Below are positions 40,704 to 61,411 of a DNA stretch of 64,000 nucleotides, in pieces. The notes beneath the pieces were generated by a model, which was not told the origin of the DNA, did not search any database, and saw only the letters and a program-made list of their open reading frames with translations. Origin of the DNA: Desulfurococcales archaeon (GTDB lineage Archaea; Thermoproteota; Thermoprotei_A; Sulfolobales; Desulfurococcaceae); contig JALVYU010000031.1 in the NCBI GenBank assembly GCA_027022365.1, forward strand, positions 256,001-320,000, given 5' to 3'. The stretch's first letter is position 1, and each line of letters starts with the position of its first letter. Position numbers and translations under genes: made by a program.

Positions 40704-40708
40704 TCATT

Positions 40709-42358: not shown

Positions 42359-42894
42359 GTCTCAAGAAGCTCCTCAAACCCTTCAAGCTGATCAGCATTG
42401 CGCGCAGGAGCGGAGTGGTCACCGTACTCTATCCCTACCAGAAGTCATTGATAACCACCGAGTTCCGTGGGAAGATAAGCATCGACGCCACAAAGTGTAT
42501 GGGCTGTGGCGCATGCGTAAATGCCTGTCCACCGAACGCACTAACTCTATCACGAAGAGATGACACAATCATACTAAACTATTTCATAGGAAGATGTATT
42601 TTCTGCGGACGCTGTGCAGAGGTATGTCCCGTCGGAGCAATAACGGTTACACACGAATTCGAGCTGGCATCAACAAGTACTAGGGATCTGAACGAGAGCC
42701 TCGTTCACCGTATTGAGAGGTGCAGTGGTTGCGGCGGAGGACTAGGGGCTACGAGCAGGATGCTACAATACGTGATCCTGCATAGCCCGGCCTCCGAGAA
42801 CTACGTACACCTATGTCCCGACTGCAGGAAGAAGAAGCTCATACAATCCCTGGCAATGAAGATGGGTGCGAGGACTGAAGACTATGAGGGTTGA
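42355..42894 (+). CDS. Hydrogenase Fe-S subunit (HycF/NuoI type)
   Basis: YP...FRGK, CMGCGACVNACP, CIFCGRCAEVCP, extra CSGC...CPDC. Confidence 0.92.
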   Translation: MSLKKLLKPFKLISIARRSGVVTVLYPYQKSLITTEFRGKISIDATKCMGCGACVNACPPNALTLSRRDDTIILNYFIGRCIFCGRCAEVCPVGAITVTHEFELASTSTRDLNESLVHRIERCSGCGGGLGATSRMLQYVILHSPASENYVHLCPDCRKKKLIQSLAMKMGARTEDYEG

Positions 42895-43357
42895 CCCGCT
42901 CAAGAAGAGCATATGGGTTTTCCACCTGAACACTGGTAGCTGTAACGCCTGCGACATAGAAATACTCGATGCACTAACACCATATTTTGACGTTGAGAGG
43001 TTCGGGATAAAGCTCGTCGCCTCCCCACGGCACGCGGACCTAGTACTCCTTACTGGGCCGATAACTAGGAAGACTCTCCCTAAAGTGATCAATGCTCTGC
43101 GCGCTGTTCCCCGTCCACGCTATGTCTTAGCCATAGGGGCGTGTGCCGTAGGCGGGGGAATATGGTATGATACCTACAGCGTGATAGGCGGTGTTGAGGA
43201 GCTGAAGAAGATACTCGAGGAGAACGGGATCGAGATAGATAGGATAGTCTATGTACCCGGATGCCCTGCCAGGCCTGAGGCGATAATATATGGTGTGGCA
43301 GTACTCCTCGGCCTCGTCGAGCAGAAAGTTCACGGGGAGGTGAAGATCGCTGAGTAA
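42884..43357 (+). CDS. Group-4 hydrogenase small subunit (HycG/NuoB type)
   Basis: GSCNACDIE, SPRHAD, GACA..GG, PGCPARPE. Confidence 0.94.
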   Translation: MRVDPLKKSIWVFHLNTGSCNACDIEILDALTPYFDVERFGIKLVASPRHADLVLLTGPITRKTLPKVINALRAVPRPRYVLAIGACAVGGGIWYDTYSVIGGVEELKKILEENGIEIDRIVYVPGCPARPEAIIYGVAVLLGLVEQKVHGEVKIAE

Positions 43358-43610
43358 AGTCAAGATATACCTCTGCACTTACCATGACGAGAAACCAGAG
43401 CTTTCGGCAAGACATTTCATATCGTCGATAGGGCACTGCTACCACGTTGCCGATGCAGAGCTCGCGGAGCTAGGCCTCGATGAGAAAACATTAGAGAAGC
43501 TTAGGCTCCGCGGCGAGGTAAACCTCTACGAAAACAAATACTTCGAGAAAATACTGGGTCGGCCACATGAGGACCTTGAATATCTGAAGATCAGGCTCGC
43601 GGAGGGCTGA
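43350..43610 (+). CDS. Unannotated 86-aa protein with CTG start between the hydrogenase and Mrp genes
   Basis: GGAGGTGA (43336-43343) + 6 nt + CTG AGT AAA... gives MSKVKIYLCTYHDEKPELSARHFISSIGHCYHVADAELAELGLDEKTLEKLRLRGEVNLYENKYFEKILGRPHEDLEYLKIRLAEG*. It fills the operon gap exactly. Confidence 0.72.
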   Translation: MSKVKIYLCTYHDEKPELSARHFISSIGHCYHVADAELAELGLDEKTLEKLRLRGEVNLYENKYFEKILGRPHEDLEYLKIRLAEG

Positions 43611-43617
43611 AAGGATC

Positions 43618-43905
43618 GTGATATCCCTTCACGACGAGGTAACCCTGTTCATCATGATTGTGTTTCCGTTATACCTACTTGCCTTCACGCTCTACATCAT
43701 AAGAGCTGTCCGGGGACCCACTATACCTGATACTGTCCTCGCGATAGATGCGCTGAGCTTTGATATAGCGGCATTCCTAGCACTACTAGCAATAATATAC
43801 CAGTCTCCAATCCTGATCGCCTGCACGATAGTCTTGGCTCTCTGGGTCTACGCCCTCGACATCTATGTATCCAAGTACTTCACAGCCGAGGAGATGGGTG
43901 ATTAG
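43618..43905 (+). CDS. mnhF: Mrp/Mnh antiporter subunit F
   Basis: RAVRGPTIPDTVLAID; three TMs; SKYF. Confidence 0.88.
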   Translation: MISLHDEVTLFIMIVFPLYLLAFTLYIIRAVRGPTIPDTVLAIDALSFDIAAFLALLAIIYQSPILIACTIVLALWVYALDIYVSKYFTAEEMGD

Positions 43906-43907
43906 AC

Positions 43908-44288
43908 ATGTTACTCAACGCCCTGCTCATATTTATCGGTGAGGCCCTAGTAGCGATAGGGGTATTCTGCGACCTAGCCGCCAGCATAGGCATGATAAGA
44001 TTCCCGAACTTCTATACCAGGCTCCACGCGGCCACGGTAGGCACGATAGGCGGAGCGGTTGTCCCGCTGATCGGCGTAGCGCTCATGGCTCTAGGCGCAG
44101 ACTGGCTCGGCAACTACAGGTTCTTCTTGGCGGGTGCTAGTATTGTCGCAGGGATATTGATCCTCCTCCTAGCCCCCGTGGGCTCCCACGTACTTGCACA
44201 GGCCGCCCATAAGGCTGGGCTGGCTTCCCATGAACCTATTGCTTTCGATCACCTCGAGGAGGATCGTAGGAGGGGTGAGAAGGAGTGA
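43908..44288 (+). CDS. mnhG: Mrp/Mnh antiporter subunit G
   Basis: GMIRFPNFYTRLHAAT, PVGSHVLAQA. Confidence 0.92.
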   Translation: MLLNALLIFIGEALVAIGVFCDLAASIGMIRFPNFYTRLHAATVGTIGGAVVPLIGVALMALGADWLGNYRFFLAGASIVAGILILLLAPVGSHVLAQAAHKAGLASHEPIAFDHLEEDRRRGEKE

Positions 44289-44542
44289 TCGAGGTATTCA
44301 CTCTAGCCTTCCTGATGCTGGTAAGCGTGGCGAGCGTTGTAGCCGCTTATCTAGCGATACGTGAACGGGACATGGTTAAAGCCATCGTGTACTCCGCAAT
44401 ACAGAGCGCCATGTATGCCCTGATCTTCTATGTCCTTATGGCGCCCGACATAGTGCTGGTCTACATACCCGTCTCTGTAGGGATAACCCCGGCTGTACTG
44501 CTCTTTGTAACGAAGAAGACCGAGAGATATGATGGTGATTAG
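44285..44542 (+). CDS. Mrp/Mnh small subunit (DUF4040, MbhD-like)
   Basis: RDMVKAIV, MAPDIVL...VGI; three TMs. Confidence 0.82.
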   Translation: MIEVFTLAFLMLVSVASVVAAYLAIRERDMVKAIVYSAIQSAMYALIFYVLMAPDIVLVYIPVSVGITPAVLLFVTKKTERYDGD

Positions 44543-44544
44543 CT

Positions 44545-45342
44545 ATGAAGGCCAGCGAATTATTCGTGCTGGTATCGATAATAGTGTTCATATTCAGCCT
44601 GGCCTACATCACAAGCCTTGGGGGCCTGGGCCAGCTACCCCCAGTAAATGTTAGATTGCTTGCTCAACGCTACCTTGAGCTCACATGGAATCCGCTCAAA
44701 CCATTCATGAGTAGCAGCGGCTACGAGAGCGTAACGGCTATTGTATGGGATTTCCGCGGCCTAGACACTTTCTTCGAAACAGCTGTGTTCTACGGCGCGA
44801 TCATAGCCGCCATAGCGATCTATAGGGGAGTCAAGATAACCGGTAAGGGGAGAACAACCGGTATGAGCCCGATAGCAAGGACGATCACGAGGCTCAGCAT
44901 AATACTGATACCAACGGTTGCGGCCAGCATAGCGCTTCACGGACACCTTACCCCGGGCGGAGGCTTCCAAGCAGGTAGCGTCGCGACAGTAGTCGTGGTG
45001 CTTATCATTATGGTCTTCGGAAGGAAAGCCCTGATCCGGAAGGGGATGACGAAGGCCCGAATACTGCTGTTCAGGAGCCTCGGCCTCCTGGGAATAGGTT
45101 TCACCGCAGTAGCGATACTACTGGCAGGCATCATCCTAGGTCTAAACGCCTATATATTCCAGAACCAGCCAAAACCATTCGCGCCGCTCGGATTCCCCAA
45201 GCTATACGACGGCATGATACTCGGTGGAAGCCTGCTCCTCTTCAACCTCTTCGAGTTCATAGCAGTAACCGCTGGCTTCACGCTTGTACTCCTACTGCTT
45301 AGCCTTGGAGAAGAAGAAGTGAGGGGTGTGGTGGAGAAGTGA
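44545..45342 (+). CDS. mnhB: Mrp/Mnh antiporter subunit B
   Basis: VTAIVWDFRGLDTFFE, HGHLTPGGGFQAG. Confidence 0.92.
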   Translation: MKASELFVLVSIIVFIFSLAYITSLGGLGQLPPVNVRLLAQRYLELTWNPLKPFMSSSGYESVTAIVWDFRGLDTFFETAVFYGAIIAAIAIYRGVKITGKGRTTGMSPIARTITRLSIILIPTVAASIALHGHLTPGGGFQAGSVATVVVVLIIMVFGRKALIRKGMTKARILLFRSLGLLGIGFTAVAILLAGIILGLNAYIFQNQPKPFAPLGFPKLYDGMILGGSLLLFNLFEFIAVTAGFTLVLLLLSLGEEEVRGVVEK

Positions 45343-45728
45343 ACCTGTCGCTAATGACTGCCTATGTGGTCGTTATAAGCCTCTACGTGAACCTAGGCAT
45401 AGCTCTCTATGGCGTATTCGCCAGGCCGAGCCTGGTCAAGAAGCTACTGGCCATAACGATCCTCAGCGACACCGCCAACGCTTTCGCCGTACTGGTCGGC
45501 TATCGGTGGCCTGCATCGGGGACGCCTAAACCGCCCGTATATACTAACACGACGTTCAATAACCAGACACTCCACTACTATGTCAGCCACGCCGTGGATC
45601 CTCTCCCGCAAGCCCTTGTGCTTACCGCTATTGTGATAGGCTTGGCTGTCACTATGTTCATAGCCTTCATCATAATCCAGTACTATAGGCTTCACGGAAC
45701 AGTGGATGTCCGTAAAGCCCGGAGGTGA
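45339..45728 (+). CDS. mnhC: Mrp/Mnh antiporter subunit C
   Basis: DPLPQALVLTAIVIGLA. Confidence 0.93.
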   Translation: MNLSLMTAYVVVISLYVNLGIALYGVFARPSLVKKLLAITILSDTANAFAVLVGYRWPASGTPKPPVYTNTTFNNQTLHYYVSHAVDPLPQALVLTAIVIGLAVTMFIAFIIIQYYRLHGTVDVRKARR

Positions 45729-46237
45729 TCGTGGTGAACCTGAAGTCGGCGATACCCGCCATGATATTGTCGTTCATAGTATACATAGTCTACACGGGAA
45801 GCATCGACCCCTATGACCTATTAACAGGGGCAATAGTAGCAGTAATAATCGGGCTCCTTACAGGAGAGATCGTTATTAAGGATCCTGGGAAGGCCTTTGA
45901 CCCTAAGAGGCTCTACTGGCTGATCAAGTACACGATATGGTACTTCCTAGTAGCGGAGGTGAAGGCCCACGTCGACGTGATTAAGAGGGCTCTAAGCCCG
46001 AGAATCCCGCTCAACCCCGCGATCGTACGCGTCCCATATTATGTTGAGACGGACTACGCAATGACAACAATCGCGAACAGCATAACCAATACCCCGGGCA
46101 CCGTCGTCGTGGACATAGACTATGGCCGCAAAATATTCTACGTACACTGGATAGACGCTAAGACAAGCGATCCGGGGGAAGCCCGGAAGATGATCAGCCT
46201 CGATTTCGAAGAGCATGCAAGGAAGATATTCGATTAG
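45725..46237 (+). CDS. mnhE: Mrp/Mnh antiporter subunit E
   Basis: NPAIVRVP, ANSITNTPGT, YVHWID. Confidence 0.92.
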   Translation: MIVVNLKSAIPAMILSFIVYIVYTGSIDPYDLLTGAIVAVIIGLLTGEIVIKDPGKAFDPKRLYWLIKYTIWYFLVAEVKAHVDVIKRALSPRIPLNPAIVRVPYYVETDYAMTTIANSITNTPGTVVVDIDYGRKIFYVHWIDAKTSDPGEARKMISLDFEEHARKIFD

Positions 46238-46255
46238 ACCGTGAGGTGTTAGAAA

Positions 46256-47917
46256 ATGATGATCTATACACCGCTCGGAATAGTCCCCCTAATGCTCACG
46301 TTCGCGGCTTTCGCCATACCCTTACTAACACTAATTATTAAGAAGGAGTGGTTCTATCACCTGTACGCCCTGGTCTTCAGCATCATAGCCCTCTGCTATA
46401 CTGCCGAGAACTTCTGGCTAGTAGTATACGGTGTCAAGCAGCCAGTATCCTATTTGTTCGGTGGATGGATTGCGCCTCTAGGCATAGTATATACGGTCGA
46501 CGGCCTTGGCGCTGTTCTCGGCCTCCTAGTAGGCATTGACATGGTGCTAATAGTACTGTACAGCATATGGTACATGAGGGGAGAGGAGGGCATAGAATGG
46601 TATTATACCCTCCTACTCCTGCTCGAGTCGGCCATGATAGGGATCGTGTATACGGGCGACATATTCAACCTCTTCGTAATGATCGAGCTCCTAGCAATAA
46701 GCGCCTACGGCCTTGTGGGGTTTTATAGGCACAAGAAGGAAGCCATAGAGGCGGCGATAAAGTATGCATTAATAGGAGCCACAGCGACAACTATGTTCTT
46801 CCTATCAATAGTCTATATCTATGGGACTTACGGCACCGTCAACATGGCGGATCTAGCGCTTAAGGCGAGGCTACCGTGGATAACACGGTATATACCGCAG
46901 GCGGCCGCATATTTTGCTCATCTCAGCGGAACAGGCTACGGGAACCCGATAGTGGCAACAGCTATAGCAATAGCGCTAGCACTATGGGCCTTCACGTTTA
47001 AAGCAGCAGTGTTCCCCAACTATTTCTGGCTCCCGGACGCCCACCCCGAGGCCCCTACCCCGGTGTCCGCGGCTCTCTCGGGGCTAGTGGTGAAGATGGG
47101 TGCGTATGCTACTATAAGGCTTCTTTACACGATCTTCGGTGTCGGGTCACTGATAGATGCATCAGCTGCTGGCGGCTGGAGCCTCCGCGATGTAATACTC
47201 TTCATCATATTGTTACTGGGCGCTGTATCGGCAATGATAGGGAGCCTGGTAATGATCATCCAGAACGATATCAAGAGAATCCTAGCTTACTCGACAATAG
47301 ATCATCTTGGAATAATATTCATGGGAATAGGCGTAGCCATGCATAGTGTGAGTCAAGCAGTGGTAGCCATAGCCCTGACGGGAGTGGTACTCCACATGAT
47401 AAACCATAGCTTCGGCAAAACAATGCTCTTCATGGCGAGCGGAATATACATCAAGAACAGCGGTACGAGAGACATAACGAGAATGAGGGGTATTGGCAGG
47501 CTATTGCCGGTGACGAGCCTGGTCATGATAATCGGGCTGCTACACTTACTAGGAGTTCCTCCCTTCGGAGGATTCTTCAGCAAGCTCCTAATATATAATG
47601 CCCTGATAGGGGCTGGGCAAGTAGTCTTCGCGCTAATACTCATCCTATCAACGGCGATAAGCATGCTGGGATATATGAGGATAATAGTTAACTTGATCCT
47701 GCCTCCGAGGCCTCCGGAACTAATTGGGAAGGCGAGGGAGAGCATACCTGCCACGACAATACTCTGCGTATTAGCGGCTATCATAATAATCATAGGCATC
47801 TATTGCCTTACAGGAGGGATAAACACCCTACAGTCAATAATAGAGCCTTCAACAACGCTTAAGGGACTAGTTCAATACATAGATTCTACATTCTCTACAT
47901 ACATGCTTCCAAGATAA
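46256..47917 (+). CDS. mnhD: Mrp/Mnh antiporter subunit D
   Basis: GGWIAPLGI, DIFNLFVMIE, EAAIKY, WLPDAHPEAP, DIKRILAYS. Confidence 0.92.
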   Translation: MMIYTPLGIVPLMLTFAAFAIPLLTLIIKKEWFYHLYALVFSIIALCYTAENFWLVVYGVKQPVSYLFGGWIAPLGIVYTVDGLGAVLGLLVGIDMVLIVLYSIWYMRGEEGIEWYYTLLLLLESAMIGIVYTGDIFNLFVMIELLAISAYGLVGFYRHKKEAIEAAIKYALIGATATTMFFLSIVYIYGTYGTVNMADLALKARLPWITRYIPQAAAYFAHLSGTGYGNPIVATAIAIALALWAFTFKAAVFPNYFWLPDAHPEAPTPVSAALSGLVVKMGAYATIRLLYTIFGVGSLIDASAAGGWSLRDVILFIILLLGAVSAMIGSLVMIIQNDIKRILAYSTIDHLGIIFMGIGVAMHSVSQAVVAIALTGVVLHMINHSFGKTMLFMASGIYIKNSGTRDITRMRGIGRLLPVTSLVMIIGLLHLLGVPPFGGFFSKLLIYNALIGAGQVVFALILILSTAISMLGYMRIIVNLILPPRPPELIGKARESIPATTILCVLAAIIIIIGIYCLTGGINTLQSIIEPSTTLKGLVQYIDSTFSTYMLPR

Positions 47918-48056: not shown

Positions 48057-49352
48057 ATGGGTGAGGAACCCCGCGGTATATCTTCTCTCAAAGCTCTTGT
48101 CTACGGCGCTGGCACCCTCATGGGCGTTGGCAGCAGTATGATCGTATCATGGCTAATGTACTACTACTGCCCCCCGCCAGAGGCTGGGCTTATCGCGCTA
48201 GCACCCGTTTTCGCGATGGGAGTAGTTATATTGTTTGGAAGATTCATAGACGCTATAAGCGACCCTATTATCGGGTGGTGGAGCGACCGAACGGTAACCC
48301 GTTGGGGACGGAGAAGGCCCTTCATATTCTTCGGTTTCTTGGCGATGTTGTTCAGCCAGATATTGATCTGGATCCCCCTTGTGCACCAGGTATCATTAAT
48401 CAATGTTCTATACGCAGCGGTTATGGATGGTATATTCTGGTTCGGATATACTGCCGCTATAAATCCATACCTAGCCCTTATACCAGAGATCGCTAGAAAC
48501 CCTAATGATAGAGTTAAACTCACCACATTCCAAGCCTTCTTCAGCCAGATAAGCCTCGTGATAGGCGGTGTGATAGTACCCCTATTACTTGCGGCTATAG
48601 GATTCATTAGCACAGCAGTTGTTCTGGGGGCTATAGGATTCGCCGTGATGCTACCCCTCCTCATAGTGATTAAGGAGAAGCCGCCGGAAGATAAGAAGAT
48701 AGCTACGGGTATGGGAATCTACCGTGCTCTCCTACTAACGTTCAAGAACAGGACATTCCTCCTCTACTTGATCCCTACAGCCATACTATTCCTGAGCGCC
48801 ACGATGATCCAGATGGAGATACCCTACGCAGTCAATGTATTGGCCGGGCTCAACAAGAAGGATGTCTCGCTCTTCTACCTACCACTAATAATCACAGCGA
48901 TCATATCACTTCCTTTCTACAAGAAGCTCGCCTCGAAATATGGTAAGAAAAAACTATACCTGATGGCCATGACATGCTTCATGATACCAGCCTTCCTCAC
49001 AGCATTCATAGGAATAATACCCGTTAGCCCGCGCATAATGATCATAGGCCTCGGAGCGCTGGCAGGAGTATTCGTAGCGCCGCTCTACATTTTCCCCAAC
49101 GCGATCATAGCGGACATAACTGATATAGATGAGCAGATGACGGGATACAGGAGAGAAGCAATTTACTTCGGATCACAGGGACTGATCACAAAAACAATGG
49201 CGGGGCTAGCCGGGGTACTAACAGGGACACTAATGTGGAAACTAGGATACAGTCCAGGCAACGACCTCGGAATAAGAGCATCATTCATACTAGCAGCACT
49301 AGTACTAATAATAGCCGCACTAATATTCAGAAAGTATCCTATCGAAAAATAA
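48057..49352 (+). CDS. MFS transporter, GPH/MelB-like glycoside:cation symporter
   Basis: DAISDPIIGWWSDRT.TRWGRRRPF, PYLALIPE, ADITDIDE..TGYRREAIYFG. Confidence 0.9.
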   Translation: MGEEPRGISSLKALVYGAGTLMGVGSSMIVSWLMYYYCPPPEAGLIALAPVFAMGVVILFGRFIDAISDPIIGWWSDRTVTRWGRRRPFIFFGFLAMLFSQILIWIPLVHQVSLINVLYAAVMDGIFWFGYTAAINPYLALIPEIARNPNDRVKLTTFQAFFSQISLVIGGVIVPLLLAAIGFISTAVVLGAIGFAVMLPLLIVIKEKPPEDKKIATGMGIYRALLLTFKNRTFLLYLIPTAILFLSATMIQMEIPYAVNVLAGLNKKDVSLFYLPLIITAIISLPFYKKLASKYGKKKLYLMAMTCFMIPAFLTAFIGIIPVSPRIMIIGLGALAGVFVAPLYIFPNAIIADITDIDEQMTGYRREAIYFGSQGLITKTMAGLAGVLTGTLMWKLGYSPGNDLGIRASFILAALVLIIAALIFRKYPIEK

Positions 49353-49713
49353 CGTCTCATCGAAATCGCTGGTATAGCCACACAAGTTTTTAAAAACAAT
49401 TAGCACTCGTCCAGGGGTAAAAGGGAGACTAAGGGAGAGGCGAGATAAAACATAATCTATAGGACAACTACCAGGAGAGCCGGGCTTTAGAATAAAGTAA
49501 TAATGCATTATACATAGCGCCTGCTGAGGAAAAGACCTACCCTTATTTTGCTCCGGAGGAGAAGCAAGCGAGAAACCGCTAAAGGACTCGGTGTAAAGAC
49601 AGTTCATATTGACCATAAGGAAAATAATTAGTGTTCATCAACAAATGTGTTCCGACAATACAGCGTCACGGAAGTGTCATTGAAAAACTATCTAGTGATC
49701 CGCCAGTGGTGCT

Positions 49714-50901
49714 ATGGAAATGCGTTTTCAAGAGCTCCCCGTCAGTGCCCGTAGATACATATTGTATCACGCTCTTGTCTCACCGGTTCTTATTACCTGG
49801 TATTTGTTACCATATTATCTGTTGTTGACCGGGTATAGTGTCCTAGAGGTAGGCGCTATATTTACGGCGGTAAATGTTCTAAGTGTTCCTCTAACTCTTT
49901 GGCTCGGCAAGAAGTTCCAAAGCATTGATATTAGGAAGGGATTAGCGACTATCGACGTGCTTGAATCCATGTCGAATGTAGCATACGGCTTTGCCTACGG
50001 TCCCATAGCGCCCTTAATGATCGTTCTTGGCGGGCTTACCGAGAAAGCTAGCGGCACCTTATATTTTCTATACCCGGCCTACGAGAGGATAATATATCCC
50101 GAGGACAGGATGAAGGAAGCACTGTCTATTCATTTGAGGATACCAGAGCTAACAATAATTCTCACATATCCCGTCATAGGGTTCATGCTCGGCTACGTAT
50201 GGTCTTCCCCAGCCTCAATAAGGTACTCTTTTCTCATGTTCGCCGCATACCAGTTTGCACTAGTACCCTATATATTATGGTTCTTTAGACCCGTAAAGAT
50301 ATCCCGCGAAGAGGAAGACAGCCCTAACACCTCTAAGCCTTCCTTAGGCCGTCTACCCAGAAAGTACTTGGCTTACATCATAGCCGATGTACTGTTTATT
50401 CTGGCTTGGCTACTCGCACCCAATCTAGCTCTCGTGTATTATGTCCTCAAATGGCTGCATGGAAACATATTCCATGTAGCATTGATTGAGGCCAGTATAT
50501 CTACAGCTACAATTATCGGTACCTTCATAGTTGATAGGCTAGCAAGAGACAAGCCCGGGCGATACTTGGCAGCGGGAACACTCATAACAGTAGCAGGTTT
50601 AGGGATGGCCGTAGCAACCAGTATATTTCCAATCATACTGCTTGCCTTCTTCATAGTTAGGCTGGGGGATAGTATCGTGTTTGTCTACAAGCGGTTATGG
50701 CTATACAGCATAATGAGTAGAGGAGAAGCATCCATAGCATCCGCATTGATCTCGAGCATAAGGCGGACAATATCATTGTTCTCTCCCGGCCTAGCATCCC
50801 TACTTTCAACATTGAATCCCCGTGCACCATACATCGCGTGCTTGACACTGTTACTCGTGACTATACCAGTGTATCTATCATTTCTGGCAAAGAAAAAATA
50901 G
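49714..50901 (+). CDS. MFS-type membrane transporter
   Basis: About 11-12 hydrophobic helices with a central hydrophilic loop. Confidence 0.7.
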   Translation: MEMRFQELPVSARRYILYHALVSPVLITWYLLPYYLLLTGYSVLEVGAIFTAVNVLSVPLTLWLGKKFQSIDIRKGLATIDVLESMSNVAYGFAYGPIAPLMIVLGGLTEKASGTLYFLYPAYERIIYPEDRMKEALSIHLRIPELTIILTYPVIGFMLGYVWSSPASIRYSFLMFAAYQFALVPYILWFFRPVKISREEEDSPNTSKPSLGRLPRKYLAYIIADVLFILAWLLAPNLALVYYVLKWLHGNIFHVALIEASISTATIIGTFIVDRLARDKPGRYLAAGTLITVAGLGMAVATSIFPIILLAFFIVRLGDSIVFVYKRLWLYSIMSRGEASIASALISSIRRTISLFSPGLASLLSTLNPRAPYIACLTLLLVTIPVYLSFLAKKK

Positions 50902-51168
50902 AGAGGCCATGAGAACCACATAATGTATCTATAATGTTCAAAACATATACCAAGGATTCTCCTAGAGAGCTGACATCGTACGAGATACAGTCATCCCCAA
51001 CGAATTTTGGACTAGACCATCATTTCTACTGAGACCCGGGAAACAGGATCACTGTTGTCTATAGTGTTAATCTAGTATTTGTTGTTCTCGCTACGTTCAT
51101 TACATGGTTATATAATAAATACATACAATACTTATATAGTGATTACAATAGCGTCAGGTGCCCGCGTC

Positions 51169-51954
51169 TTGTCCTATGAAGAAATTAGTAGATTGGCGGA
51201 TTTGATACGCTCTTATTTAAAACAATATGGCTACGATATAGACGAAGCCCCATACACTGCTAATCGAATACTCTGTATTGCTCCTCACCCTGACGATTGT
51301 GAAGTTGGAGCCGGAGGCCTGCTGGCTAAGGCATCGGATCACGGGACAGAAACCTACATCCTCGTCCTCACAGATGGGTCAATGGGCACTAGCAGGCCGG
51401 GCATAAGTAGGGATGAACTAGCGCTGAGAAGACGTAGAGAGCAGGAGGAGGCTGCGAAAGTCTTAGGGGTTAAGAAGGTTTACTGGCTAGGCTACAGGGA
51501 TGGCTTCCTCCCATATACTGATGAGGCTCGATTAAGGATAGCCACCATAATACGGCGGGTTAAACCCGATCTCGTATTGGCCCCCGATCCATGGATGATG
51601 TATGAGGCCCACCCAGATCATCGGAGAGCAGGACTACTGGTTTCAGAGGCCTTCCTCTACTCTGGCTTCCCCCTCTACGGTCCCGAGACCGGTGATCCCT
51701 GGAGCCCCCGGTATATCGCCTACTACTACACTGGCAGGCCGAACGTCTACGTTGACATAACGGGTTATCTGGAAAAGAAGCTTGAAGCCTTAAAGAAGCA
51801 TGAAAGCCAGCTAGAAGGCCTAGAACCACTTCTCAAACTCCTAGTCGTCTATGCAGAGCAAGCTGGGAAGAAAATAGGCGTCAAATACGCAGAACCACTA
51901 AAGATCCTGCCAAGAATACTCGTGCACGCCATACCCCTCGCAGAGATAATCTAA
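51169..51954 (+). CDS. PIG-L/LmbE-family N-deacetylase (diacetylchitobiose deacetylase-like)
   Basis: IAPHPDDCEVGAGG, TDGSMG, RRREQEEAA, YEAHPDH, KHESQ. TTG start at 51169 behind AGGTG. Confidence 0.88.
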   Translation: MSYEEISRLADLIRSYLKQYGYDIDEAPYTANRILCIAPHPDDCEVGAGGLLAKASDHGTETYILVLTDGSMGTSRPGISRDELALRRRREQEEAAKVLGVKKVYWLGYRDGFLPYTDEARLRIATIIRRVKPDLVLAPDPWMMYEAHPDHRRAGLLVSEAFLYSGFPLYGPETGDPWSPRYIAYYYTGRPNVYVDITGYLEKKLEALKKHESQLEGLEPLLKLLVVYAEQAGKKIGVKYAEPLKILPRILVHAIPLAEII

Positions 51955-51967
51955 GAGGGCACAGGAA

Positions 51968-53113
51968 ATGATCAAGGGAGTAGTAGAGGGGTTCTACGGG
52001 CCTACATGGGACCTGCTCGACAGGCTCTCAATAATAGACCTACTGTCTTATCTCGAGATGAACACATACGTGTATGCGCCGAAATGGGATCCCTACCATA
52101 GGGAGAGGTGGAGGAGCCCCTACCCCGAAAACATCCTCCTCGAACTGGAAATACTCTCTGACCATGCCAGGAGGAGAAGAGTAGAACCAGTATACGCGTT
52201 ATCCCCGGGACTAGACATAGATTATTCGAGCAGAGAAGACCTAGGAGCACTACTGAGGAAATACCAGCAGGTAATGAATGCTGGCTACGACTCGATAGCG
52301 CTGCTCCTAGATGATATCCCCCCAGTACTGAGGGGTAAAGGCTATAAAACACTAGCAGAGGCCCAGGCAAGCTTGGCGAACAAAGTCTACAAGGAGCTAA
52401 AGCCGAAGATAATGATGTTATGTCCAACACACTATTGGGGATACCATGAAGACTACCTAAGGGAGCTCGGCGAGAAACTAGACCCCGAGGTAAAGATATT
52501 TTGGACAGGGCCCGGAATAGTATCCCGTAAAATAACGGTAGAAGGCGTCAAGAAATTCATCGAGATCACGGGTAGAAAGCCACTGATCTGGGATAACTAT
52601 CCGGTAAACGACTACTTCTTAGTAAAAGGCTACTATCGCCTACACCTAGGACCATACAAGGGCAGAGACCCCAAAATACTAGACATGGCCGAGGGGATCC
52701 TATTGAACCCGATGAACCAGGCAGAACTATCGAAAATCCCGATCCACACAGCGGGAATATTTCTACAAGACCCACAGCACTACAACCCCCTGCAGGCTTT
52801 AGAGGAAGCAATAACACACAACATAAACCCCGAGGCAAGAAGAGCCTTCAGAATCATAGTTATGCTACAACAATCAACGCCAATGGATCCCCAGGCAGAC
52901 CACAAGCCTAGACCCGAAGAAGCGGACACATTATTAAAAGCAGTGATGGAGCTACAGACAAAATTAACAAACAAGAAGATGCTACATGAACTAGCCTATT
53001 TACTACAAGGAGTACAACAACTAGTTCAAAGCCTCGAAGGAAAAGCGGAACCCCACCCAAGGATATTGCTGGCAGGAAAATACCTAGTTCAACTCATACC
53101 GGGGTATAAGTAA
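51968..53113 (+). CDS. GH84 beta-N-acetylglucosaminidase (O-GlcNAcase/hyaluronidase family), cytoplasmic
   Basis: GVVEGFYG.W, MNTYVYAPK.DPYHR..WR.PYP, ALSPG, catalytic LLDDI, CPTHY, WTGP, WDNYPVND, NPMNQ; no signal peptide. Confidence 0.9.
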   Translation: MIKGVVEGFYGPTWDLLDRLSIIDLLSYLEMNTYVYAPKWDPYHRERWRSPYPENILLELEILSDHARRRRVEPVYALSPGLDIDYSSREDLGALLRKYQQVMNAGYDSIALLLDDIPPVLRGKGYKTLAEAQASLANKVYKELKPKIMMLCPTHYWGYHEDYLRELGEKLDPEVKIFWTGPGIVSRKITVEGVKKFIEITGRKPLIWDNYPVNDYFLVKGYYRLHLGPYKGRDPKILDMAEGILLNPMNQAELSKIPIHTAGIFLQDPQHYNPLQALEEAITHNINPEARRAFRIIVMLQQSTPMDPQADHKPRPEEADTLLKAVMELQTKLTNKKMLHELAYLLQGVQQLVQSLEGKAEPHPRILLAGKYLVQLIPGYK

Positions 53114-53267
53114 TATGTAAGGATAAATGATCCTAACATGGTATAATTTTTCCCATTAAATCAGTATAAGATATCAGATGTTTATCTTCTTTACCTCCTC
53201 GAGCTGTTTTACGATATGATCTATTCTCTGTTCCTTGGTATAGTTGTGGATCTAACTACTTTTGTTT

Positions 53268-54173
53268 TCATAAAACCTTGCTATAGATCAAGTATTCCCT
53301 TATATCCGTGACTCCCGGTATCCATGCATAGAAGAACAGGTGTGTTGTCCATGGGATGATCGCGTACCGTATTCCTAGGAGTCTCATAGAGTCCAGTGTA
53401 TGTAGTAGGAGGATCTTTCCTAAGCCTCGGCCCCGGTATTTCTCGTCGACGCCTATTGGGCCGAACCTGTACCTGTGGCTTGCACTGTGTACGGCGAATC
53501 CAGCTATCCCGTTGTTTGTTTCAGCCACGTATATTCTGCCGTATTTTTTCTCTAGGGCTAGCTGGGCCTCTATACTCCATTGCAGCGAGAAGTTCTTCTC
53601 GATCCACTTGAATACGGGATCATTTCTGCTCGTCGATTCTCTGATCTCTACGTCATCTGTTCTAATCCTTATGTCTTGTCTCTCGATCCAGTATCGCTCT
53701 AGATCTACTGTGTAATCAACTGCTCTTGATACTATCTTGTAGCCTCGGTCTTTAAGCCGTTCTCGTAGCCTGTAGTTCCTAGAGTTTACCCCGGTGAGGA
53801 AGTACCAGGGAGCATACCCGTATATTCTGACGCCTCTTTTACCCTTTTTCTCCGCGAGCTCCTCGATATAGGATAGTAGTTTTTCGAAGCATTCTTCGGA
53901 GTCTTTATCGACGGCTAGCAGCTTGACCCATAAGTATTCGAGTGCTTGTCTAGGTGGTTTTAGGCCGGGCAGTGCTGCGGGCTCTGCATAGACGAGCAAC
54001 CCCTTAGTATCACCGTTTTCTATGCAGGCTATAATGTAGTCGGGTTTTGTGAATGGGTCTTTATGGATACATGTTTCTACGTGTTCATAGTCAATAAAGT
54101 CGTGGGGAAGGAGCTTGTTTGCCGTAGTGACTATCTCGTGGTCGTTTAACCCCTTGATGATCTTGATGGTCAT
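53268..54173 (-). CDS. Tandem GNAT acetyltransferase (glucosamine N-acetyltransferase-like)
   Basis: YAPWYFLTGV, FGPIGVDEKYRGRGLGKILL, YAIIPWT. Confidence 0.75.
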   Translation of the reverse strand: MTIKIIKGLNDHEIVTTANKLLPHDFIDYEHVETCIHKDPFTKPDYIIACIENGDTKGLLVYAEPAALPGLKPPRQALEYLWVKLLAVDKDSEECFEKLLSYIEELAEKKGKRGVRIYGYAPWYFLTGVNSRNYRLRERLKDRGYKIVSRAVDYTVDLERYWIERQDIRIRTDDVEIRESTSRNDPVFKWIEKNFSLQWSIEAQLALEKKYGRIYVAETNNGIAGFAVHSASHRYRFGPIGVDEKYRGRGLGKILLLHTLDSMRLLGIRYAIIPWTTHLFFYAWIPGVTDIREYLIYSKVL

Positions 54174-54339: not shown

Positions 54340-54840
54340 GTGTATGTAGACTTGGCGACAACTTCGCCTCCCTCATCACCAGTAGTTCTCGGTAGGGTGT
54401 CTTGGTTCTACTATTATCCTATTGAGGGGATTGTTTATGATCTTAACTTCTCCGGAGATGTGGCTGTTCTTCATACCAATCATGGTGCTCTGAGATATAG
54501 ATATACAGGTATTTCTGTCAAGTACCTTAGAATTCCGGATCCGAGGATCACGAAGATCACTATGATTTTCACCGCAATAATGTTCGTAATTATCGCATTG
54601 ATCGTGCTCAGCTCCGTGAACACAGGCTTCGGACTATTATTCGGGTCAAGCCCATCTGGGTTCTTCCGGCTCTTCACTCTCCTCATCATCGTCTCAGCGA
54701 TATTCGCGGCTTTCACTCTCGTATCAGCTTGTAGATCTAAGCCCGTCCTCGCCCTAATCGATCATGCTGGTGTTGAGCATTATTATATCGTCGATTCTAA
54801 GAGCAGGGATAGAATTCTCCGTAATGTTGTCTCTCTGTAA
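54340..54840 (+). CDS. Hypothetical membrane protein (two TMs)
   Basis: Two central hydrophobic helices; no family recognised. Confidence 0.55.
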   Translation: MYVDLATTSPPSSPVVLGRVSWFYYYPIEGIVYDLNFSGDVAVLHTNHGALRYRYTGISVKYLRIPDPRITKITMIFTAIMFVIIALIVLSSVNTGFGLLFGSSPSGFFRLFTLLIIVSAIFAAFTLVSACRSKPVLALIDHAGVEHYYIVDSKSRDRILRNVVSL

Positions 54841-57306: not shown

Positions 57307-57508
57307 TCCCACTTGATAACGAAGTTTTATCATGGTCTAGAATATCTGTACCTTTTTATGTGGGTTAACAACAGCTATAATCGAAGCGATAATAGATTCC
57401 TAATTATACGCTGGGCCTGCACGACAATATATGAGTGGGAACACCTGCCCGGCAACATTTATTCAATCCTTCTAAGATAAGGCATTCATAGAGGATCAGG
57501 TGAGCCTC

Positions 57509-58582
57509 ATGTTTAGAATCGGTGGAGAATATCTGGTTCGTTCAACGGATCCTGTTATCCTTGAACGGGCGCTTAGCGGCGGCGTAGCAACTGCGCTCAC
57601 GAAATATTTGCTCGAGAAAAGAATTGTGGACATGGCGCTCCTTATCAGATCTGATGGAATCACTGGTGGCAGGTTATTCTTTGCGCGCGACCCCGAGGAA
57701 GTAGTCGAGTCTGCTGGTAGTATTTGCTTATCCCCTATAAACATGGCCAAGGCTATACGGGACTACGTCTCAAGAGACGAGAAGGTCGCAATAACGGTTA
57801 AGCCGTGCGAAGAGAAAGCGATCGACTACTTGGTCAGAACAGGACGTGTTAGGAGGGAGAACCTCTTCCTTATAGGATTGAATTGCGGCGGGTTATTTGA
57901 CCCGCTAAGCCTTGAGAAGACCATGGAGGAGCTAAGCGTAGACCCCGACAAGATAACCGATATCAGGTATCATGACGACGCGATAGAGATAGTTATTGAT
58001 AACGATAAGTCCTTCAGGATAGACTATGTGAAAGGATATGAGAAGCTAGGGCAGAGAGACGCTTGTAAGAGATGCTTAGACCATACTCCCTCATTATCAG
58101 ACGTAGCTCTTGGATACTGGGGCGTACCGATCAGGACCGCCAAGTACACGTATACCATACCCTTGACCGAGCGTGGAAGGAGAGCATTGGAGGAGATGCT
58201 CTACAATGGCTATATCGAAGCGGTTCCAGCTCCGCCGAGCGCCGTGGAAGCTAGGAAGAGGATCATAGAGACTATTAGGAAGGCCAGCATGATCGCGAGG
58301 GAGAAACAATACGAGGTATTGGATAGGGCTGGCATAGCGATGTTTCTCCAGAAATGCCTAATGTGTATGGAGTGCTGGCACGCCTGCCCGATCAGGAGCG
58401 AGAAAGAAATCTATGCGTGGAAGAAGAAGCTCGACCCTGTATTGTGGCAGATCAGCGTGATCACGTACATGTACGACAAATGTGTCGGGTGCGGGGCCTG
58501 TGAGGACGCCTGCCCCGTCAAGATACCGTTTGCACTCATCATAGAGCGTCTACGCGACCTAAGAAGAGAGCTGGGTGTCTAG
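57509..58582 (+). CDS. fdhB: Formate dehydrogenase beta subunit, FrhB/FdhB (F420-binding) family with C-terminal 2x[4Fe-4S]
   Basis: SGGVATAL, SAGS, KVAITVKPC, IGLNCGG, RDACKRC, DVALGYWG, CLMCMECWHACP, CVGCGACEDACP. Confidence 0.82.
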   Translation: MFRIGGEYLVRSTDPVILERALSGGVATALTKYLLEKRIVDMALLIRSDGITGGRLFFARDPEEVVESAGSICLSPINMAKAIRDYVSRDEKVAITVKPCEEKAIDYLVRTGRVRRENLFLIGLNCGGLFDPLSLEKTMEELSVDPDKITDIRYHDDAIEIVIDNDKSFRIDYVKGYEKLGQRDACKRCLDHTPSLSDVALGYWGVPIRTAKYTYTIPLTERGRRALEEMLYNGYIEAVPAPPSAVEARKRIIETIRKASMIAREKQYEVLDRAGIAMFLQKCLMCMECWHACPIRSEKEIYAWKKKLDPVLWQISVITYMYDKCVGCGACEDACPVKIPFALIIERLRDLRRELGV

Positions 58583-58584
58583 CC

Positions 58585-60690
58585 ATGGCGGGAGAGATAA
58601 GGCTTGGATATACTGTGTGCCCCTTCTGCGGAGCCGGCTGTGGATTCCATCTCGTTGTACGGGATGGGAGAGTAATCGGTGCTGAGAGAATATATGATCA
58701 CCCTGTCTCCGCCGGAGTACTATGTCCCAAGGGAGCATATGCGTGGAAGATCATAAATCACCCCGACAGGCTCACAACACCGCTGAAGCGGACCGAGAGG
58801 GGCTTCAGGCCAATAACATGGAGAGAAGCAATCAGAGAAATAGCAGAGGCTATGAGGAGGATAGCCAAAGACGATCCGGACAGAGCATACTTCCTGGCGA
58901 GCGCTAAGTGCACGAACGAGGAGAACTTCCTCCTACAGAAAATAGCGAGGACGATCATAGGGACCAACAACATAGATCACTGTGCAAGGCTATGCCACAG
59001 CCCGACCGTCGCCGCCCTGGCGCGCAGCCTTGGATCAGCGGCTATGACTAATCCTATAAACGATGTAGCGAACGCCAAGACACTGTTCATCATAGGCTAT
59101 AACCCTGCAGAGACCCATCCCGCCATATTCAGGTTCGTAGAGGACGCACGCAGGAAATACGCATCGGTACCCGCACGGAAGATCGCAATCGCGAGGTTCG
59201 GCCTAGGACTAGGAGAGACAGAGTTCAAAATGATAGTGGCCGATCCAAGGAAGACGATGACGGCCGTACAAGCCGATATTCATCTCCAGCAAAAGCCGGG
59301 AACAGATGCTGTATTGATAAACGCAATGATAAAAACAATCATAGATCACGGCCTCGTGGACAAAGAATTCGTAGAGAAGAGAACAACTGGCTACGAGAGA
59401 CTAGTTGAGAGCCTCAAAGACTTCGACCTAGATGAGGCCTCGAGGATTACGGGGGTGCCACGGAAACTCATAGAGGAAGCAGCAATAACATATGCGGTGA
59501 ACAAGCCCTCCACGATATACTACGGAATGGGGATAACCCAGCACAGGAACGGCACAGCCCTCGTCCAAGCCCTCGTAAACATGGCACTAATAACAGGAAA
59601 CATAGGCAGGCCAGGGGCAGGAATATGTCCTGCAAGGGGACAAGCCAACGTGCAGGGAGCATGTGATATGGCCGCACTACCTGACTTCTACCCAGGGTAC
59701 AGGAAGATAGCGCCGGAGAACGCCCGTGAACTCAGCCACATATGGGGCCTACCAGTACCGGTTGATGAGGGAATGTTTAGCACCGAGATGTGGAATGTAG
59801 CCTTGACGGGAGGCATAGACCTCCTGTACATAATGGGTGAAAACCCGCTGATCTCCGAGCCGGGATACTACCGTATAATGAGGGCGCTCAAAAGAATAGA
59901 TCTGGTCGTGGTGCAGGATATATTCCTCACCGAGACAGCCAGGCATGCAGACATAGTATTGCCAGCAGGGCTGTGGGCTGAGAAAACAGGCACAATGACA
60001 AACACGGAGAGAAGAGTACAGCTATTCGAGAAAATAGTTGACCCGCCCGGAGAGGCTAGGCCCGACCTAGACATCCTATTGGCACTACTCAAAGAGCTGG
60101 GGGCACCATTCAGATACGACGGGCCGGAACAAGTATTCGAGGACATCCGACGAACAATACCTACTTACCGCGGGATAACATACGAGAGGCTGAGAAAGAA
60201 GCGCTATGGCATACAGTGGCCGTGTCCCAACGAGAATCATCCGGGGACACCGATCCTCCATACCGAGAGGTTCCCGACACCCGACGGCAAGGCGAGGATC
60301 ACGCCTGTTAGGCCCGAGGTAACCGTTAAGACCACTGATGAATACCCGTTCATACTCATCAACGGCAGGCTCATAACACACTATAACACAGGGACAATGA
60401 CGAGACGCATAATGGAGCTCCTACTAAAGGATGATTCAAGCCTTCTATATATAAGCCCTGACGACGCGAGGAGCCTAGGAATATTAGACGGAGACATAGT
60501 AGAGCTCGAGACGCCCTACGGCAGAGAGAGGATAACAGTCAAGATAACGACGGAAGTACCAAAAGGCGTGCTATTCGTGCCGAACCACTTCATAGACCCG
60601 CCGGTAAACACGTTCGTCGGCGATATAATAGATCCTGTGTCGGGGATACCGGAGTATAAGGGGATACCGGCAAGAATTAACCTGATATAG
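58585..60690 (+). CDS. fdhA: Mo/W formate dehydrogenase alpha subunit (Cys-type)
   Basis: CPFCGAGC...LCPKG, SAKCTNEENF, NIDHCARLCHSPT, GITQH, RGQANVQGACDM, HYNTGTMTRR, PEYK. Confidence 0.93.
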   Translation: MAGEIRLGYTVCPFCGAGCGFHLVVRDGRVIGAERIYDHPVSAGVLCPKGAYAWKIINHPDRLTTPLKRTERGFRPITWREAIREIAEAMRRIAKDDPDRAYFLASAKCTNEENFLLQKIARTIIGTNNIDHCARLCHSPTVAALARSLGSAAMTNPINDVANAKTLFIIGYNPAETHPAIFRFVEDARRKYASVPARKIAIARFGLGLGETEFKMIVADPRKTMTAVQADIHLQQKPGTDAVLINAMIKTIIDHGLVDKEFVEKRTTGYERLVESLKDFDLDEASRITGVPRKLIEEAAITYAVNKPSTIYYGMGITQHRNGTALVQALVNMALITGNIGRPGAGICPARGQANVQGACDMAALPDFYPGYRKIAPENARELSHIWGLPVPVDEGMFSTEMWNVALTGGIDLLYIMGENPLISEPGYYRIMRALKRIDLVVVQDIFLTETARHADIVLPAGLWAEKTGTMTNTERRVQLFEKIVDPPGEARPDLDILLALLKELGAPFRYDGPEQVFEDIRRTIPTYRGITYERLRKKRYGIQWPCPNENHPGTPILHTERFPTPDGKARITPVRPEVTVKTTDEYPFILINGRLITHYNTGTMTRRIMELLLKDDSSLLYISPDDARSLGILDGDIVELETPYGRERITVKITTEVPKGVLFVPNHFIDPPVNTFVGDIIDPVSGIPEYKGIPARINLI

Positions 60691-60724
60691 GCAGGCGTGA
60701 CAGTAGCGTTAAAAACAGTTTTTA

Positions 60725-61411
60725 TCATCTGTAACATGTTTTTATCCATTGAACGCACCTCAGGCAAGGATCAGGTTCTCCCGCCAGTACGCCGTCCTCG
60801 AAGCATCTAACGTCATCCCTGTTGTTGATATTATAGAGACTCAGTTTTACGAGGTCTGGATAATCATCGATCAATAAGATCTTAGCGCCGGGAACCAAGC
60901 GAACGGCCTGGGAAAGACTCCTGATCCCGCGTAGGTATAGTTTACGGAGATAGCTTTCGGCCCCCCTAGAATAGTATCCATGCAGTGGCTCGAGGAAACC
61001 ATTCCTCCATCCAGGCAAAACTATGGAGAACCCTTGCAGAGCGGTATTGAGGATCTCAGATACTAGTTCCATGCGTACACACGGCATATCCCCGCCGAAA
61101 ACCATTATCTGGTCGTAAAGCTCCAGTGCCTTCAGAATACCCGTGATAGGGCCTCCGAGCAGGTTATCAACGTGTATTTTCGAGGAAATCTTGGCCCGTG
61201 ATAGCTTCTCAGCATTCGTCTTAGAAGCGATAATGACTGGTTCTCTACCAAATATCTTCTCAACGTTCTCGCATGTATATTTTATCAATGGTTTTTCAGC
61301 TATTCTATAAAATAATTTGTCTCCGTCGAATCTCCTGGATGAACCACCTGCGAGAATAATTGGAATCAAGTCTTTAAATATATCATTTGTTATATCGTTA
61401 TCGTCTTCCAC
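60725..61411 (-). CDS. mobA: Molybdenum cofactor guanylyltransferase
   Basis: ILAGGSSRRF..DK, GPITGI, GGDMP, EPLHGYY, NINN.DD. Confidence 0.88.
   Translation of the reverse strand: MEDDNDITNDIFKDLIPIILAGGSSRRFDGDKLFYRIAEKPLIKYTCENVEKIFGREPVIIASKTNAEKLSRAKISSKIHVDNLLGGPITGILKALELYDQIMVFGGDMPCVRMELVSEILNTALQGFSIVLPGWRNGFLEPLHGYYSRGAESYLRKLYLRGIRSLSQAVRLVPGAKILLIDDYPDLVKLSLYNINNRDDVRCFEDGVLAGEPDPCLRCVQWIKTCYR

Follow-up and report, generated by a model that had tools for sequence, protein, structure and literature searches.

Glycoside hydrolases of family GH84 have been described in animals, where they act in O-GlcNAc signalling, and in bacteria. The processing of chitin-derived sugars in Archaea has been described for the Thermococcales, whose chitinolytic pathway was reportedly laid out by Tanaka et al. 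in 2004 and which take up chito-oligomers via an ABC system. According to PMC3102087, this pathway comprises ChiA, the deacetylase Dac, the exo-β-D-glucosaminidase GlmA (GH35) and GlmD. Here, we describe a gene cluster at positions 48,057–54,173 of a 64,000-nucleotide (nt) stretch of DNA from a Desulfurococcales archaeon (assembly GCA_027022365.1, contig JALVYU010000031.1, forward-strand positions 256,001–320,000), which as a whole is referred to as the window. An earlier note on this DNA had reported five open reading frames (ORFs) in the cluster—two major facilitator superfamily (MFS) transporters, a PIG-L deacetylase, a GH84 hydrolase, and a tandem-GNAT acetyltransferase—and their coordinates and families were confirmed by the ORF list and Pfam. 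By sequence, every cluster part belongs to a known family. Together with a GH4 glycosidase encoded further downstream, the cluster would serve the cytoplasmic salvage of small glycosides with N-acetylglucosamine (GlcNAc) or glucosamine (GlcN) as their non-reducing end, organized in two arms and with chito-oligosaccharides of mixed acetylation, derived from vent chitin, as the likeliest substrate. To this reading we assign a probability of roughly 0.55.

The GH84 gene (51968–53113, + strand) encodes a predicted cytoplasmic β-N-acetylglucosaminidase of 381 amino acids (aa). Its match to PF07555 (304.7 bits versus a cut-off of 25; E 8.8e-91) is strong, and it bears out what the earlier note had claimed: a compact GH84 with a catalytic DD pair and no signal peptide. 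Residues 3–297 already cover profile positions 1–293 of 295, leaving no room for a leader. The DD pair, D115-D116, is present without exception in an alignment of 22 archaeal GH84 proteins and corresponds to the DD of PDB 9ba8; D115 presumably polarises the 2-acetamido group of the substrate and D116 acts as acid/base. Altogether, 38 distinct GH84 sequences in the PDB match the protein, the best being TtOGA (5diy, 1.7e-59), and its structural model (pLDDT 92.3) superimposes in Foldseek on TtOGA, human OGA (hOGA), CpOGA and OgOGA with TM scores of 0.78–0.84. The model indicates a (β/α)8 barrel followed by a C-terminal helical bundle. Family, fold and catalytic pair are thus those of hOGA, TtOGA, CpOGA/NagJ, BtGH84 and OgOGA; however, the archaeal protein is shorter than all solved full-length GH84 enzymes and carries neither a fused HAT domain nor a CBM nor a leader. 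Some GH84 proteins from archaeal metagenome-assembled genomes (MAGs) have already been named “protein O-GlcNAcase” automatically in databases, while no activity or role of an archaeal GH84 was met in the literature searched by titles and abstract openings, a search to which subscription journals, CAZy and supplements did not belong.

This kinship raises the question of whether the enzyme is a true O-GlcNAcase that acts on cytoplasmic proteins as a signalling eraser, as in animals. Its closest matches in sequence and fold (TtOGA 5diy, human OGA, CpOGA), the OGA-type helical bundle, the lack of a leader, and an adjacent GNAT that recalls the HAT-like domain of OGA would all fit such a role. Protein O-GlcNAc cycling is unlikely, though, because no GT41 O-GlcNAc transferase (OGT) was found: PF13844 has zero matches in the 99.97%-complete genome, with a control that found the family in 2 of 14 named genomes. 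Moreover, the GH84 gene is co-transcribed with a sugar deacetylase gene downstream of sugar transporters, its clade relatives reside in amino-sugar catabolic clusters, and the GNAT matches sugar N-acetyltransferases, with no OGA-HAT or OgpAT among the Foldseek matches listed. In contrast to the known O-GlcNAcases, the gene context is catabolic here, and the removal of protein O-GlcNAc, which the earlier note had named as a less likely alternative, is disfavoured to the point of being highly improbable.

The GNAT gene (53268–54173, − strand) encodes a 301-aa protein with a Pfam GNAT match. The note had pointed to a resemblance to a clostridial enzyme, and this holds in sequence as well as in fold: phmmer aligns residues 58–278 with the Clostridium acetobutylicum glucosamine N-acetyltransferase GlmA (5kf1; E 1.3e-8), and the structural model (pLDDT 88.8) finds the same entry at rank 1 in Foldseek (E 1.3e-17, TM 0.79, full-length superposition, ~20% identity). 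Ranks 1–6 are all taken by the entries 5kf1, 5kgh, 5kf2 and 5kga (TM 0.78–0.80). As judged from the model, the archaeal protein folds like the clostridial acetyltransferase, so that the two-domain, i.e., tandem, architecture claimed for it stands; its orientation relative to GH84, described as facing, is convergent, tail to tail, rather than divergent. The stretch RGRGLGK, which we take to be the acetyl-CoA-binding motif, is intact. From the clostridial enzyme, reportedly studied by Dopkins et al. in 2016, the N-acetylation of GlcN or terminal GlcN would be expected, enabling GlcNAc-specific enzymes. Besides the low identity, the archaeal protein differs from it in having Pro in place of Asp287 and in its partner hydrolase, which is GH84, or GH20 in one genome discussed below. 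Kinship with OGA-HAT or OgpAT was considered and rejected, with no such match in phmmer (E ≤ 1) or among the 31 Foldseek matches listed.

A word-based search for homologues of this GNAT returned only 8 proteins, while a profile search revealed a large family (1963 cluster representatives at E ≤ 0.001), whose few named members are generic “GNAT family” proteins from archaeal and bacterial MAGs. One member, P0275 (673 aa), combines a PF00144 β-lactamase-type domain and the tandem GNAT in a single natural polypeptide. A different type of acetyltransferase, an Eis-like Acetyltransf_9 protein of 427 aa, directly follows GH84 at two other archaeal loci (L047, 10219–11502; L054, 2287–3570); at L047, it is accompanied by genes for GH42, a ROK kinase, UPF0309 and an ABC transporter.

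The order “acetylate, then cleave” has precedents. In the Rhizomucor miehei protein RmNag (4zm6), acetyltransferase activity is required for (GlcN)2 cleavage by the N-acetylglucosaminidase, as reported in PMC4680927, and in lysosomes, HGSNAT must act ahead of glycosidases, according to PMC11199644 and PMC2757673. RmNag also appears among the structural matches of the archaeal GNAT (Foldseek rank 8, TMq 0.76); in both systems a structurally similar GNAT is coupled to a β-N-acetylglucosaminidase. The fungal protein, however, is a GH3-GNAT fusion, whereas the archaeal activities are encoded by separate genes and the hydrolase is of family GH84.

The deacetylase gene (51079–51954, + strand) ends 13 nt ahead of the GH84 gene (stop at 51954, start at 51968), as reported before. 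Its designation as a PIG-L deacetylase named the right family (PIG-L, 5.4e-33); more precisely, the protein (CE14/PIG-L) is, by sequence, orthologous to Dac, the diacetylchitobiose deacetylase of the Thermococcales (E 8e-68). In phmmer searches of the PDB, the solved Dac chains 3wl4 (8.4e-68), 8bgo (2.6e-66) and 3we7 (4.5e-65) clearly precede the next family (4e-23), and the identity to the Thermococcales Dac is ~50%. Query residues 33–291 match residues 2–267 of the solved chains; since this alignment begins at residue 33 of the longest ORF, translation probably starts at the GTG at 51166, which would make the protein 262 aa long. For Pch-Dac, PMC9779004 gives a Zn triad of His40, Asp43 and His151, and as catalytic residues Asp42 and His259*, the latter being located in the C-terminal arm of the adjacent subunit. 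All five (H40, D43, H151, D42, H259*) are conserved in the window protein, as seen in the alignment to 3wl4, which reaches the C-terminus of both. The substrates characterised for Dac are (GlcNAc)2, GlcNAc and (GlcNAc)3, according to the same source.

This orthology changes how the cluster relates to the Thermococcales. The earlier note had set the module apart from their chitin route; since the PIG-L gene is a Dac orthologue, the two overlap. Both would involve cytoplasmic processing of imported chito-oligomers and, as proposed here, deacetylation before cleavage. Unlike in the Thermococcales, neither a GlmA-type GH35/GH42 nor GlmD nor a GH18 chitinase was found in the genome, where GH84, GNAT and GH4 are present instead, and uptake would rely on a GPH symporter rather than an ABC system. 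For a Thermococcus-type GlmA, the only candidate was a weak PF02449 match (8.3e-5), which proved to be a GH1 β-glucosidase; a GlmD-type deaminase scored only within full-length GlmS proteins. Both candidates were, thus, rejected.

Whether the genes of the cluster belong together was judged from their conservation in 41 related genomes of 34 genera, a set that includes the window's own genome. In two species of the same genus, the region is fully syntenic at ~93% protein identity. Beyond the genus, genes for GPH, Dac, GH84, GNAT and GH4 occur together in three genomes, two from one other genus (G023 and G082) and one from another genus of the same family (G020), with identities to the window proteins of 49–52% (GH84), 49–54% (Dac), 36–37% (GNAT), 63% (GPH) and 62–68% (GH4). 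Gene order and orientation vary among them, and this shuffled order at constant membership across three genera favours a functional link over inherited order. A survey of gene neighbourhoods, as the earlier note had suggested, thus supports co-occurrence in other genera, and neither this survey nor the GH84 profile search, both of which that note had named as possible refutations, spoke against its reading. GNAT orthologues of 35–38% identity adjoin GH84 in G023, G020, G030 and G040.

The GH4 gene (61554–62996, − strand; Pfam GH4 N- and C-terminal domains) had not figured in the cluster as first described. Its product is a GH4 protein by sequence, but it is not certified as AglA: it scores 539.6 bits against NF041089 (AglA), which is under the cut-off of 650. 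The best PDB match is 1obb (4.3e-133), with 6-phospho-β-glucosidases at only ~1e-25. At two loci elsewhere (L010 and L012), GH4 directly adjoins GNAT or GH84.

When the patterns of presence are compared, two associations emerge. PF07555 (GH84) is found in 9 of the 41 genomes and GNAT likewise in 9, with both present in 8; the exceptions are G008, which has GH84 without the GNAT, and G039, which has the GNAT without a GH84 match. In the latter (L109, 5982–9980), the orthologous GNAT gene is co-directional with that for NagA and divergent from one for a GH20 hexosaminidase, which appears to replace GH84 in this genome. Like GH84, GH20 cleaves by substrate assistance and, hence, requires the acetamido group of the substrate. 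Dac, on the other hand, occurs in 7 of the 41 genomes, and each of these has a full-length GH4 as well (≥63% identity); these counts are not independent, because four of the genomes share one genus. GH4 is additionally present in G030, and G028 has a partial match. A class-wide sample of 301 genomes from 99 genera contained Dac orthologues (E ≤ 1e-40) in 26 genomes and 10 genera. Outside the window's genus, 21 Dac loci were examined, several of them on short contigs, and 7 of these have GH4 no more than 6 kb away from Dac. Six of the seven belong to two genera, g8 and g57 (L123, L126–L128, L118, L120), where the retrieved Dac flanks hold neither GH84 nor GNAT; at L126, the order is GH1-MFS-GH4-Dac. 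At the eight loci of genus g24, Dac occurs without GH4, its neighbours being a xylose-isomerase-like TIM-barrel protein, transporters, and a GH29 fucosidase. Such TIM-barrel proteins (AP_endonuc_2) recur beside Dac, GNAT or a BadF-type kinase in several lineages (L014, 5435–6277; L110, 8715–9527; L111, 8419–9534; L116, 8130–9254; L121, 12852–13967; L130, 6552–7541).

Since the GNAT tracks GH84 or GH20 while Dac tracks GH4 across genomes and loci, we suggest a division into two arms, one pairing the GNAT with a hydrolase specific for GlcNAc, the other pairing Dac with GH4. The idea that the acetylation state is adjusted for GH84 cleavage, as put forward in the earlier note for both enzymes, then probably applies to the GNAT only; because Dac tracks GH4 rather than GH84, it would fall outside this adjustment. 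The proposed import of GlcNAc glycosides with acetylation editing, hence, fits the comparative data once the part of Dac is changed. The logic of the Dac-GH4 pairing has a parallel in the E. coli chb system, in which the deacetylase ChbG is paired with ChbF, a GH4 enzyme cleaving mono-deacetylated chitobiose. There are also differences: ChbG is of the YdjC family, whereas the archaeal deacetylase is of the PIG-L type; ChbF acts on a 6-phosphorylated product of a phosphotransferase system (PTS), while no PTS takes part here; and the archaeal GH4 is AglA-like (1obb, 4e-133). Neither for the Dac-GH4 pair nor for an archaeal AnmK cluster, to which we return below, did the literature searched by titles and abstract openings contain a mention.

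The data show family and fold membership, catalytic residues that are intact, gene linkage that is conserved, and co-occurrence across genomes; the substrates, the sequence of reactions, and what the GH4 and a GlmS paralogue contribute to the proposed salvage are what we infer from this body of evidence, as follows. A glycoside would be imported by the GPH symporter, joined in this genus by the second MFS transporter, and the leaderless GH84 would remove terminal β-GlcNAc in a substrate-assisted reaction. The GNAT would use acetyl-CoA to acetylate terminal or free GlcN, rendering it cleavable by GH84 and usable by a GlcNAc kinase; this step is proposed because GH84 chemistry needs the N-acetyl group. 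In the other arm, Dac would deacetylate terminal GlcNAc and the AglA-like GH4 would cleave the resulting GlcN-glycoside, for which the NAD+-dependent elimination chemistry of GH4 should need no acetamido group. Finally, a BadF-type, NagK-like kinase, NagA, and then either a GlmS paralogue lacking its catalytic Cys or a UPF0309 protein would lead to fructose-6-phosphate and ammonia. Hydrothermal vents are rich in chitin, and DNA nearly identical to the cluster is found in sequencing runs labelled as hydrothermal vent metagenome, which belong to studies other than the possible source. These runs together with the known Dac substrates are the reason for preferring chito-oligomers.

Several points weigh against this reading. 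The acetyl-methyl pocket of Pch-Dac is formed by Ile46, Phe219, Trp227 and Ile260*, as given in PMC9779004, and it differs in the window protein at each of these positions by smaller, hydrophobic residues (I46V, F219L, W227L, I260A); in addition, five residues are missing between positions 219 and 227. In the GNAT, the position of Asp287 in 5kf1 is taken by Pro274, and all 10 archaeal GNATs compared have Pro there; by the PDB titles, Asp287 is the residue mutated in entry 5kga, and Tyr297, short of which the phmmer alignment stops, is likewise named in titles. In the archaeal enzymes, His278 and Tyr282, both invariant and close by, might stand in. The GH4 of the window sits 8.4 kb downstream of the cluster, is most like the α-glucosidase AglA (1obb), and may simply hydrolyse α-glucosides. 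Only 3 of the 34 genera carry Dac, GH84 and GNAT together, and the counted genomes include close kin. Dac and GNAT catalyse opposite reactions and could, thus, run a futile cycle. NagA and the sugar isomerase (SIS) gene next to it are 24 kb away from the cluster, and GH18 chitinases have no match in the genome, so that chitin must first be cut by other organisms. Lastly, neither archaeal GH84 proteins nor this GNAT clade nor the GH4 have an activity on record.

The wider distribution of archaeal GH84 introduces a second candidate substrate. A scan with one genome per species yielded 80 GH84 loci and, together with those of the related genomes, 35 archaeal loci were compared. Most of these come from Desulfurococcales and Sulfolobales MAGs, with Zestosphaera tikiterensis, a Staphylothermus MAG and Desulfurococcaceae archaeon AG1 among the sources as well. 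In a phylogeny of 81 sequences (448 of 1060 columns kept, two rows of <280 aa left out), 33 archaeal rows form one clade with an SH-aLRT support of 99, just outside of which one Thermoproteota MAG and a WOR-3 bacterium are placed on long branches. The loci with Dac, GNAT and GPH constitute one subclade of 8 rows (support 92). Among the genes neighbouring GH84 at the 35 loci are those for UPF0309 SIS_2 proteins, which are related to MurQ (12 loci), PBP4B-like PF00144 hydrolases (6), AnmK (5, one of which passes the NCBIfam equivalog cut-off with 414 versus 387 bits), NagK-like BadF kinases (2) and Eis-like Acetyltransf_9 GNATs (2); NagA-like genes lie within 9 kb at 10 loci. With short contigs being frequent, all of these counts are minimum values. 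In terms of gene content, the neighbourhoods of the clade are those of amino-sugar and muropeptide catabolism. At Zestosphaera tikiterensis L034 (4345–11000) as well as at L057, L052, L044 and L037, GH84 is found with AnmK, the PBP4B-like hydrolase, the NagK-like kinase, UPF0309 and NagA. The clusters of GH84, AnmK and PBP4B-like hydrolase look like a muropeptide (anhMurNAc) catabolic set in hosts that are themselves without peptidoglycan.

Because same-clade GH84 genes sit with those for AnmK, PBP4B-like hydrolases and NagA, fragments of bacterial peptidoglycan are a serious alternative substrate, one that the earlier note had lacked. The GH84 would then act like NagZ on GlcNAc-(anh)MurNAc, and the GNAT would re-acetylate GlcN-MurNAc derived from N-deacetylated walls. 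In addition to the gene neighbours, the existence of the PF00144–tandem-GNAT fusion P0275 and the GNAT's closest solved relative, from C. acetobutylicum, speak for such a role; Reith and Mayer in 2011 reportedly described that enzyme, GlmA, as acting in cell-wall recycling. The sister archaeal loci, with AnmK, PBP4B-like, NagK-like, NagA and MurQ-related SIS genes, indeed resemble bacterial muropeptide recycling (AmpG, NagZ, AnmK, MurQ, NagA), although GH84 takes the place of the GH3 enzyme NagZ and UPF0309 that of MurQ. In the window's own genome, however, neither AnmK (PF03702, 0 matches) nor PF00144 is matched, there is no MurQ-type protein among its 7 SIS matches but only the MurQ-related UPF0309, and the GNAT-bearing subclade has Dac, GPH and GH4 instead. 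The characterised Dac substrates, moreover, are (GlcNAc)2, GlcNAc and (GlcNAc)3 (PMC9779004). On balance, peptidoglycan salvage by this particular cluster is rather unlikely.

The salvage of imported chito-oligosaccharides, as favoured above, would depend on downstream steps encoded elsewhere in the genome. Within the window, a nagA gene for GlcNAc-6-phosphate deacetylase is located at 24184–25359 (+ strand; TIGR00221, 317.6 bits versus a cut-off of 225.65). Directly ahead of it, at 23320–24078 (+ strand), lies the gene for a UPF0309 (SIS_2, NagS-family) sugar-phosphate protein (PF13580, 6.1e-39; NF002805, 283 bits versus 135; PDB 3cvj, 5.7e-45), which also matches Streptomyces SCO4393/NagS (9eol) at 2.1e-34. 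NagS homologues outside the Streptomycetaceae are without NagS activity and of unassigned function, according to PMC12680351. UPF0309 is also found near GH84 in three bacterial loci (L059, L063, L100). One BadF-type kinase is encoded in the genome, while NagB has no match in it. There are two full-length GlmS genes, a canonical copy on contig C26, with the N-terminus (M)CGIIG, and a paralogue in the window (12286–14100, − strand; TIGR01135, 498 bits), which begins with MGGIFG and, thus, lacks the N-terminal catalytic Cys; beside it, an Amt ammonium transporter is encoded (14430–15638, + strand). The same Cys-less form adjoins NagA, GNAT and GH20 in G039 (L109, 3857–5704), for which reason it is a candidate GlcN-6-phosphate deaminase, or else may be an ammonia-dependent synthase.

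In a further alternative, the cluster would recycle the cell's own glycans—chitobiose-core N-glycans or free and lipid-linked oligosaccharides—so that their GlcNAc goes back into the synthesis of UDP-GlcNAc. The core of crenarchaeal N-glycans is chitobiose, the enzymes are predicted to be cytoplasmic, and at locus L033, genes for a canonical GlmS and a GlmU-like nucleotidyltransferase come after that for GH84. Yet the module has a dedicated importer, two in this genus, and GH84 is patchy (9 of 41 relatives), whereas N-glycosylation is, to our knowledge, general in these archaea. The neighbours in other lineages (NagA, AnmK) are catabolic as well. We, therefore, regard recycling of own glycans as improbable.

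A broader and distinctly more tentative proposal concerns the amino-sugar economy of the hyperthermophilic Thermoprotei as a whole. GH84 may be a general cytoplasmic exo-GlcNAcase that is coupled here to a GNAT; GH4 would be the glucosaminidase partner of Dac, analogous to the GH35 enzyme GlmA and to ChbF; and the Cys-less GlmS would be the GlcN-6-phosphate deaminase. In sister lineages, a NagZ-like GH84 would operate within the AnmK/PBP4B-like/UPF0309 cluster and feed on bacterial peptidoglycan. If the favoured salvage reading holds, there is a second archaeal route for chitin-derived sugars beside that of the Thermococcales, and the principle “edit the acetyl group, then cleave” recurs in the forms GNAT-GH84, GNAT-GH20, the GH3-GNAT fusion, Dac-GlmA and Dac-GH4. 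Testable functions would follow for AglA-like archaeal GH4 proteins, for the Cys-less GlmS, and for UPF0309 outside Streptomyces; archaea of vents and hot springs may scavenge bacterial cell wall; and the clusters would be a source of thermostable enzymes processing GlcNAc and GlcN.

Both transporters that had been placed upstream of the deacetylase are borne out by Pfam (MFS_2, MFS_1). The first one, a GPH/MFS_2-type symporter and predicted importer of 431 aa (48057–49352, + strand), matches MFS_2 with 178 bits versus a cut-off of 27 (2.5e-52) and MelB with 5.4e-30; with the NCBIfam GPH model TIGR00792, it scores 135 bits, under the cut-off of 231. GPH orthologues adjoin Dac in G023 and G020 (63% identity) and in 2 of the 8 loci of genus g24 (59%). 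The second transporter, of 395 aa (49714–50901, + strand), matches MFS_1 weakly (39.8 bits versus 33.4; 3.4e-10) and has no NCBIfam match. Its tblastn matches are limited to loci of its own genus (L013/L016 and L026/L027), the 21 Dac loci outside the genus gave no match to it, and judging by these searches, it is confined to the genus of the window. As a part of an import module, hence, the GPH symporter recurs in other genera while the second transporter does not.

That the cluster is a genomic island or contamination was rejected, because its GC content (0.46–0.47) is within the range of the rest of the window (0.42–0.53), the contig is 494 kb long, and GH84 is also present in three single-contig genomes (G008, G023, G082). 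The datasets matched by the 6.2-kb cluster stretch include no RNA dataset. Just past the GNAT gene, a predicted membrane protein of 166 aa without a family match is encoded (54340–54840, + strand), which is kept only within the genus, at 80–84% identity. The neighbourhood of the cluster consists of a gene set resembling multi-subunit antiporters of the Mrp/Mnh type on one side (36491–47917) and, on the other (57500–61411), of genes for MobA, an Fe-S protein and the alpha subunit of a formate dehydrogenase (TIGR01591, 770 bits).

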